IMG/VR virus record: IMGVR_UViG_3300045988_126502
Span: 1 to 34,613 of that record
Strand: one strand, 5' to 3'
DNA from: a virus
Length of the DNA: 34,613 nt
Shown here: positions 10,731-10,839 of the stretch, piece by piece
Layout of the letters: each line of letters starts with the position of its first letter
Position numbering within the stretch: position 1 is the stretch's first letter
Made by a program: the position numbers and the translations under genes
The notes under the pieces: generated by a model
Database searches by the model: none
Told to the model about the DNA's origin: nothing
What the model saw: the letters and a program-made list of their open reading frames with translations, nothing else

Positions 10731-10785
10731 AACTTCGCAAAAACTTCGCTAAAATTTCGCAAAAACTTCCTTTTAATTTCGCTTT
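10731..10785 (+). repeat. Five tandem 11-bp phased repeats (consensus AAYTTCGCWAA)
   Basis: The units are aacttcgcaaa / aacttcgctaa / aatttcgcaaa / aacttcctttt / aatttcgcttt. They start at 10731, 10742, 10753, 10764 and 10775, an exact 11-bp register. Confidence 0.85.
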
Positions 10786-10790
10786 TGAGG

Positions 10791-10805
10791 TGCTATAATT
10801 ATAAT
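10791..10805 (+). promoter_or_regulatory. Extended -10 promoter element (TGcTATAAT, with a second overlapping TATAAT) lacking a -35
   Basis: TG at 10791-10792, TATAAT at 10794-10799 and again at 10800-10805. The repeat array occupies the -35 and upstream region. Confidence 0.5.
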
Positions 10806-10813
10806 TGTAAAAG

Positions 10814-10839
10814 AAGGAGTTAGAAAAATCTAGCTCCTT
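10814..10839 (+). terminator. Stem-loop just downstream of the putative late promoter (terminator/attenuator or 5' stabiliser)
   Basis: AAGGAGTTAG (10814-10823) pairs with CTAGCTCCTT (10830-10839): 10 bp including one G-U, with a 6-nt loop, followed by TATTATAT. Confidence 0.4.

Follow-up and report, generated by a model that had tools for sequence, protein, structure and literature searches.

Five 11-bp repeats that are most likely docking sites for a sigma-region-4-like activator of late genes in a phage of uncultured gut Clostridia

The viral contig IMGVR_UViG_3300045988_126502 from IMG/VR was analyzed over its whole stretch of 34,613 nt (hereafter the window; G+C content 29%). An early/replication cluster comes first and a packaging/head/tail cluster after it, both wholly on the + strand. 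The final gene of the early cluster, preceded by genes for Sak SSAP, DUF1376, a G39P-like loader, and YopX, encodes a protein that we call P0001, and its stop codon is followed by a run of 11-bp repeats. What are these repeats for? An earlier note on this DNA had proposed an activator-dependent late promoter in which they serve as putative sites for the product of the upstream gene, and comparative evidence, the predicted protein fold, and the literature now support that proposal. The five repeats are most likely the docking sites by which the upstream sigma-region-4-like protein turns on the late genes.

We first consider whether the array stands out. It begins 1 nt past the TGA of the P0001 gene, and TGAGG separates unit 5 from the extended −10 element TGCTATAAT. 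The array was also called by TRF. It had been described as five AAYTTCGCWAA units in an 11-bp register; the position and the register hold, while TTCGC is present in only four units, as unit 4 has no CG. AAYTTCGC occurs eight times against 0.97 expected, with four of the eight occurrences in the array, and TTCGC is found only six times on the + strand of the 34.6-kb window, again with four inside the array. On a register score of our own, the array reaches 28/32, compared with a mean of 21.6 (sd 0.9, maximum 25) for 200 dinucleotide shuffles, and only one other array in the window, at 4784 and with a different word, scores as high. The array is therefore far above chance expectation. CpG is scarce in the window, as had been remarked, with an observed/expected ratio of 0.50.

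Table 1. Positions of the features discussed in the window
Feature	Position	Strand	Remarks
P0001 gene	10178..10729	+	183-aa late-regulator-like protein; final gene of the early/replication cluster; TGA at 10727-10729
Five head-to-tail 11-bp units	10731..10785	+	A-tract plus word CTTCGC in each, with the unit variants below; putative P0001 sites
Unit 1	10731	+	AACTTCGCAAA; good unit
Unit 2	10742	+	AACTTCGCTAA; good unit
Unit 3	10753	+	AATTTCGCAAA; good unit
Unit 4	10764	+	AACTTCCTTTT; degenerate (CTTCCT), no CG
Unit 5	10775	+	AATTTCGCTTT; word TTTCGC; 3' end degenerate
Extended −10, TGcTATAAT (TGCTATAAT)	10791..10799	+	TATAAT#1 at 10794-10799; read from sequence
Second TATAAT	10800..10805	+	directly abuts TATAAT#1; read from sequence
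Hairpin 1	10813..10840	+	12-bp stem, 4-nt loop (RNAfold); core AAGGAGTTAG/CTAGCTCCTT at 10814-10839, one G.U pair
Cargo (moron) insert	10840..12430	+	absent from related locus L007
DUF6731 protein gene	11002..11907	+	in cargo insert
172-aa protein gene	11930..12448	+	in cargo insert
Hairpin 2, AGAGCC-GTAATA-GGCTCT	12461..12480	+	U-run TTTTATTTAT on + strand; T-run on − strand
tRNA-Ser(UGA)	12497..12584	+	in late leader; Rfam 55.5 bits; ARAGORN
ORF	12610..12777	+	no gaps from the tRNA to terS
SprT-like ORF	12767..13132	+	
ORF	13145..13426	+	followed by terS
terS (small terminase, Terminase_2)	13407..13817	+	Pfam E 6e-30; PHROG 51 E 3e-39

Both TATAAT hexamers lie where they had been reported. 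The promoter has no usable −35 element, with TTTTAA, a 3/6 match, at a distance of 17 nt upstream. A consensus promoter scan listed no −35/−10 pair at 10791-10805. If the predicted +1 is 10806, the array covers positions −75 to −21. Seven bases then separate the second TATAAT from a hairpin (hairpin 1), which lies within ~35 nt of the 5' end predicted for the transcript.

This anatomy was compared across 27 related loci from phage and prophage sequences, comprising 21 viral contigs, five MAG contigs, and one Logan contig with a 35%-identical relative; protein identities are 34-99%. Every one of the 27 loci has three to five units of 11 bp directly past the stop codon and then TATAAT 10 nt on. 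The register between the repeats and TATAAT#1 does not vary among the 25 relatives with the doubled TATAAT, and by reading, L027 has the same 10-nt geometry. Distances from the stop codon to the −10 are 64, 53, and 46, or 57 and 46, so that unit number changes in 11-bp steps between three, four, and five, and arrays appear to gain or lose whole units. In every clade the degenerate units are the two promoter-proximal ones. The doubled hexamer itself, TATAATTATAAT, is unchanged in 25/27 loci. The exceptions are L027, which reads TATAAT-GATT-TATAAT, and L017, in which the second hexamer is lost (TAGAGT). Because L027 keeps the 10-nt register to TATAAT#1 and L017 does without the second hexamer, TATAAT#1 is the hexamer that is geometrically coupled to the repeats. 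For the second TATAAT, candidate roles are an alternative −10, which would leave the TTTCGC of unit 5 upstream at a distance of exactly 17 nt, or a discriminator that melts easily. A usable −35 was found in none of the 27 related loci, and the TG of the extended −10 is restricted to the clade with the CTTCGC word. Since there is no −35, and a second group of loci with the word ATTGTGAT lacks even the TG, the promoter should depend on an activator, though the extended −10 of the window might give some activity without one.

We then asked which property of these genomes the repeat word follows. The word CTTCGC occurs in the window, L001-L018, and L022-L024, together with a predicted recognition helix of the form KSIKQLQ(V/A/T)YRD (KSIKQLQVYRD in the window). 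In L019-L021, L025, and L026, the word is ATTGTGAT or ATTTGGAT and the helix is KSINQLLNIRD, and L027 combines the words GTGTGG, TAGTGG, and CTGTGC with the helix HINRLMEIRD. Residues 158-168, where these proteins differ, make up the N-terminal half of this predicted helix. L018, merely 66% identical overall, still has CTTCGC and KSIKQLQ(V/A/T)YRD. Proteins of the ATTGTGAT group are 62-66% identical overall and 62-74% identical in the N-terminal part (residues 1-125), compared with 46-50% in the HTH (residues 143-170). In L019 and L020, the genes on both sides encode proteins 95% identical to those of the window, yet the regulator and the word are both different, which indicates that regulator and sites move as a single module or cassette. 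The same CTTCGC array is present in two complete relatives, L009, a provirus estimated to be 100% complete, and L012, neither of which has a homologue of the window's small terminase, TerS. Across the sequences compared, the repeat word thus co-varies with the predicted recognition helix of the regulator and not with TerS. The pattern involves three clades only, and as the sites are linked to the gene, co-inheritance alone could yield part of it.

What kind of protein is P0001? It had been called RinA/ArpU-like, which is right at the level of fold and superfamily but not of sequence. There was no match in Pfam, PHROG, or PADLOC, and NCBIfam gave sub-threshold matches only: RinA reached 16.1 bits where 31.9 are required, and residues 110-147 matched an MG284 domain. 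As it reaches no threshold for RinA, ArpU, Sigma70_r4 (LtrA), DUF1492 (LtrB), or LtrC, P0001 belongs, judged by sequence, to a separate and unnamed family. This family has 79 cluster representatives at E ≤ 1e-3 (clusters at 50% identity), and its 90% clusters hold 572 proteins, of which nearly all lack a name and a few carry the label DUF722. A tblastn search of P0001 against 50,697 deposited phage records gave no match, and no relative was found in a cultured phage; where genome records of relatives give hosts, these are uncultured gut Clostridia or Clostridium MAGs.

The C-terminus of the family alignment reads L..eE.fII..yY....W..v...y......tLk.iR..Al.kM, the typical pattern of sigma region 4. 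Among 44 family members, three touch Pfam Sigma70_r4 at E ≥ 2.5e-4 and one touches DUF722 weakly, and a profile search of PDB sequences returned weak matches to sigma-factor region 4 (E 0.006-0.07). Matches of the same profile to GCN4 and adhesin coiled coils were dismissed as coiled-coil artefacts. An AF2 model built from the family alignment (pLDDT 91.8) has long antiparallel helices at residues 5-38 and 94-123, forming an N-terminal helical hairpin, and a C-terminal HTH with helices at 127-138, 143-154, and 160-178. The modeled C-terminal domain aligns in structure with the domains by which ECF sigma factors bind the −35, best with 3vfz_A (TMt 0.86, rmsd 1.0 Å over 64 columns) and also with 3vep_H (TMt 0.78) and 3hug (TMt 0.65-0.71); it is too short for the Foldseek E-values to reach significance. 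Searched as a whole against BFVD viral structures, P0001 gave E-values of 2e-4 to 1e-3 with probability 1.00, and these matches are annotated as Sigma-70 region 4, DUF1492, ECF sigma factor, or transcriptional activator. The model thus suggests that the C-terminus of P0001 has a sigma region-4 fold, like that of the phage Sigma70_r4/DUF1492 late regulators.

Distant members of the family, at ~25-40% identity, differ in their surroundings. In L029 and L030 (protein P0201), there are no repeats after the gene, which converges on an amidase/lysis module with a plain G+C-rich terminator, and in L031 (P0202), the layout downstream of the gene is another one, without the repeat/TATAAT arrangement. 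The architecture is accordingly limited to the core family (at least ~35% identity) rather than shared by all distant relatives. A profile search with the distant members returned six proteins only, and for three distant representatives no viral contig was found.

We next compared the locus with known late switches. The Ltr families, from temperate siphophages of Gram-positive bacteria, comprise RinA (80alpha/phi11/phi29), ArpU (phiFL2A), LtrA (Sigma70_r4), LtrB (DUF1492), and LtrC (phi55/Phi13) (Quiles-Puchalt 2013, PMC3753634). [quoted passage not shown] The same holds for the Ltr of Phi13, with four repeats at −107 to −42 (PMC13123087). As in this superfamily, the regulator here is the last early gene, direct repeats follow straight after its stop codon (two to four there, five here), the C-terminal domain is predicted to be sigma-region-4-like, and phages with similar backbones can exchange regulator and repeats as one module. 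The gene order agrees as well, with replication/recombination genes upstream and packaging and late genes, including those for TerS and TerL, downstream. There are also differences. Ltr proteins follow a rule of ~130 aa with a basic pI above 8, whereas P0001 is ~50 residues longer and acidic, with a pI of 5.2 (5.1-5.4 in relatives), and it reaches none of the five sequence thresholds. In staphylococcal phages, a terminator and intergenic DNA lie between the repeats and the promoter, whereas here the contiguous 11-bp units reach to within 10 nt of the −10. Finally, cargo, a terminator, and a tRNA occupy the 2.6 kb between the promoter and terS, the first recognizable late/packaging gene. The large terminase gene beyond it is split into two ORFs, at 13801-14355 (N-terminal part of Terminase_3) and 14411-15091 (C-terminal part plus Terminase_3C).

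The lactococcal phage TP901-1 offers a close parallel in layout. Its activator, Alt, founded the Pfam family DUF722 (PF05263; E 4e-72) and, as cited in PMC13123087, binds four imperfect direct repeats, at −76 to −32. Reading the TP901-1 sequence, we found 11-bp-spaced A-tract units, AAAACGACACG and AAAAAGGCACG, right past the alt stop codon and then TGaTATACT, followed by a leader with two tRNA genes and a terminator-like hairpin ahead of terS. The window thus resembles TP901-1 P_late in the position of the repeats after the activator gene (about −75 to −21 here, from the predicted +1), in their A-tract 11-bp spacing, in the TGn-extended −10-like element, and in the leader tRNAs and hairpin before terS. 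In contrast, the words differ and TP901-1 has no doubled TATAAT. P0001 itself did not match DUF722, and for its family against Alt hhalign gave a probability below 1%.

Activation through closely spaced direct repeats is also familiar outside late switches. The pho boxes of PhoB and the sites of lambda CII are direct repeats with a 10-11-bp period at the −35 region of promoters that have only a good −10, and both activators work with sigma region 4 and RNA polymerase. Unlike the window, these systems have two repeats rather than five, are not late switches of this kind, and use proteins of unrelated folds (a winged helix in the case of PhoB).

Taken together, the non-random array, its invariant layout, the co-variation of word and helix, module transfer, independence from TerS, the predicted fold, the lack of a −35, and the Ltr/Alt precedent make it highly probable that this is a late promoter of the Ltr/Alt type in a temperate siphophage of uncultured gut Clostridia, run by the adjacent sigma-4-like protein. 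Counting against this reading are the 2.6 kb to terS with a terminator-like hairpin in between, and the size, charge, and sequence of P0001, which depart from those of the Ltr proteins. In the proposed mechanism, P0001 would accumulate as the last early gene product, and several copies, joined through the long N-terminal helical hairpin, would probably bind the five 11-bp-spaced CTTCGC words. Lying on roughly one face of the DNA, these words would stand in for the missing −35, and bound P0001 would probably recruit or stabilize host sigma-A RNA polymerase at TGcTATAAT, with transcription predicted to start at about 10806-10813. The late transcript would then cover an exchangeable cargo slot, a terminator, and a tRNA before it reaches the packaging genes.

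Hairpin 1 would come first in this transcript. The 10-bp stem-loop that had been seen here is present, and RNAfold lengthens its stem to 12 bp (ΔG −15 to −17 kcal/mol, z = −5.9; 0/200 shuffles fold as well). Of 26 loci examined, 24 have a hairpin after the second TATAAT, with L017 and L018 showing a weak one or none. It begins 8-18 nt past that hexamer in minimal folds, or 0-5 nt past it with the outer stem drawn by RNAfold and in L027. Its sequence is not conserved between clades: four unrelated stems were found, beginning AAGGAGTTAG, AGGGCTAAC, AGTCGC(AGATAT...), which has a conserved asymmetric internal loop, and GCCGTCC. Within clades, substitutions keep the pairing through G.U (L003, L005, and L012 versus L013), which points to an RNA structure made from the + strand. 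Of the two roles suggested earlier, attenuator and stabilizer, a general attenuator is unlikely. A general intrinsic terminator or attenuator was rejected as the U-tract is not conserved: by our own count, 24 distinct sequences 3' of the hairpin have zero to four T in the 8-nt tail and none has five or more, and relatives 99% identical to the window have A-runs 3' of the stem. L011 and L027 are nonetheless terminator-like after hairpin 1. Also rejected was a sequestered ribosome-binding site, for which the AAGGAG in the stem was considered; it lies 26 nt from the next ATG, that of a 15-codon ORF, and is not conserved. With Rfam at the gathering threshold, the tRNA was the sole match in the window and nothing was found for hairpin 1. 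Most likely, the nascent RNA would fold at once into this 5' hairpin and so protect the long late transcript; that it is a generic stabilizer, for which only structure matters, we put forward tentatively, at somewhat less than even chances.

The 3' base of hairpin 1 is also the left border of a variable cargo slot. L007 is collinear with the window to 10839 and resumes at 12431 (blastn), so that it lacks 1591 bp, namely the DUF6731 gene (Pfam E 2e-52) and most of the 172-aa gene, while the repeat array is retained. The indel junction reads CCT(T/A)AAAGTATAG, and the final 18 nt of the 172-aa ORF are present in L007. Five different sequences follow hairpin 1 among 99%-identical relatives. PADLOC found nothing for the cargo genes. 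In L002, L003, and L005 (at ~3670-3730), L011-L014, L016, and L023, the conserved motif TTGACA-n-TTTCGACAG-n-ATTTGCAAAATA occurs after the hairpin with different cargo genes, and may be a shared cargo promoter or operator.

Beyond the cargo lies hairpin 2, which resembles an intrinsic terminator, stands 17 nt upstream of the tRNA, and was listed by a scan on the − strand. Related hairpins of the form AGAG...CTCT plus TTTATTAT occupy the matching relative place in many relatives, and related terminators are found 3' of the promoter in most relatives (AGAGCTTATCAAACGATAGGCTCT plus ATTATTTATG; GGAGCT...GGCTCT plus ATTTTTCTAT). Our own terminator scan found none in the 3 kb upstream of the promoter in any locus, with counts that are lower bounds, as it tends to overlook stems with A/T runs on their flanks, hairpin 2 among them. 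As the ORFs past hairpin 2 and the tRNA are contiguous, there is no room for another promoter before terS, and late transcripts seem to have to cross one terminator or more, for which partial read-through from a strong promoter is the simple explanation.

The late leader is a slot for tRNAs and cargo both in this phage group and in TP901-1. Leader tRNAs lie at 3880-3952 in L015, 4399-4469 in L019, 4879-4949 in L022, and 4813-4883 and 4968-5038 in L024, and those of TP901-1 (L032) lie at 4135-4209 and 4289-4376. Rfam searches of eight relatives returned tRNAs only. In L015, L018, L022, L024, and L026, a conserved non-coding element, TTATTAAC..ATACTAGATAAAGTTAATATA ... AATTCTAGTTAAG, replaces the tRNA past the terminator (at ~900-1010 in L018); it had no Rfam match.

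The terminators raise the possibility, which we hold to be unlikely, that regulator, doubled-TATAAT promoter, 5' hairpin, and conserved terminator(s) together form a processive antitermination module. The promoter would then be partly constitutive, and the regulator and/or the hairpin RNA would load onto polymerase there and make it resistant to terminators, in the manner of lambda Q/PR'/tR' or HK022 put. Hairpin 2 with its U-run before the tRNA, the contiguous genes behind it, the bias of related terminators to the downstream side (in an under-calling scan), and a hairpin conserved only in structure at the transcript start all suit such a module, and TGcTATAAT could fire without a −35. Lambda likewise has its regulator gene immediately before the late promoter and a terminator ahead of the late genes. 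However, Q binds between −35 and −10, requires a transcribed −10-like pause element, and has folds that bear no relation to sigma region 4. A resemblance to sigma-dependent pause elements can be seen in the doubled TATAAT, but lambda-type elements such as that of PR' sit in the transcribed region, and the second TATAAT would lie at −6 to −1, outside it. Constitutive activity is unlikely for the ATTGTGAT group, which has no TG, and L017 and L018 have a weak hairpin 1 or none. Terminators flanking morons and tRNAs are common, and partial read-through from a strong promoter may suffice. Moreover, the Ltr proteins to which P0001 is related in fold act by activation, and repeats placed upstream of a −10 are what activators typically bind (PMC3753634). 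Were this improbable module real, sigma-4-fold Ltr-type regulators, or the leader hairpin RNA, would give terminator resistance beyond activating initiation, and exchangeable cargo and tRNAs would have a protected slot in the interval from hairpin to terminator.

Could the array act through DNA shape alone? AAAA opens every unit with an 11-bp period, cargo genes lie directly downstream, and TGcTATAAT needs no −35, all of which would fit phased A-tracts whose intrinsic bend, in the manner of an UP element, strengthens a constitutive extended −10 promoter for the cargo, with no specific protein bound. We consider this very unlikely: the word outside the A-tract is conserved within clades and switches between them as a block with the recognition helix, the array is kept in L007, where there is no cargo, and the ATTGTGAT group has neither TG nor −35.

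The protein that binds could in principle be another one, a host factor or a phage protein such as a lysogeny repressor, as adjacency and co-inheritance alone cannot identify it. That reading has a very slim chance, given that divergence between clades is concentrated in the HTH of the adjacent protein and matches the change of word, and that in this layout the adjacent product is known by experiment to be the one that binds (PMC3753634). Slimmer still is the chance of a packaging site (pac/cos) bound by the small terminase, an alternative raised in the earlier note: some pac/cos sites do have phased repeats close to where the packaging module starts, but the array always abuts the regulator stop codon and a −10, with terS 2.6 kb away, and identical arrays are found in L009 and L012 with no detectable homologue of the window's TerS.

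The activator-dependent late promoter is a kind of switch already known by experiment in staphylococcal, enterococcal, and lactococcal phages (RinA, ArpU, Ltr, Alt), and the gain here is one of annotation and comparison rather than of concept. Specific to this group are a longer, acidic, unnamed regulator family with a predicted sigma-4 fold, an array that reaches up to the −10, and, in the sequences compared, a strictly conserved doubled TATAAT and a 5' hairpin, apparently conserved in structure only, that borders the cargo slot. A predicted function can thereby be assigned to a previously unannotated protein family of gut-Clostridia phages, with ~79 clusters and no Pfam or PHROG model. The three natural pairs of helix and word could be used to learn how sigma-4-like late activators read DNA, and the 3' base of the leader hairpin marks the exact point at which cargo genes and tRNAs are swapped.

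Finally, we note the second 11-bp array of the window, at 4782-4838. It has five units with the core CATATGAA and a register score of 29/32, above that of the array at 10731-10785. It lies inside an ORF at 4486-5217 with a weak DUF1376 match, right before the G39P-like helicase-loader gene at 5219-5767, and is probably the phage replication origin, with iterons inside the initiator gene.
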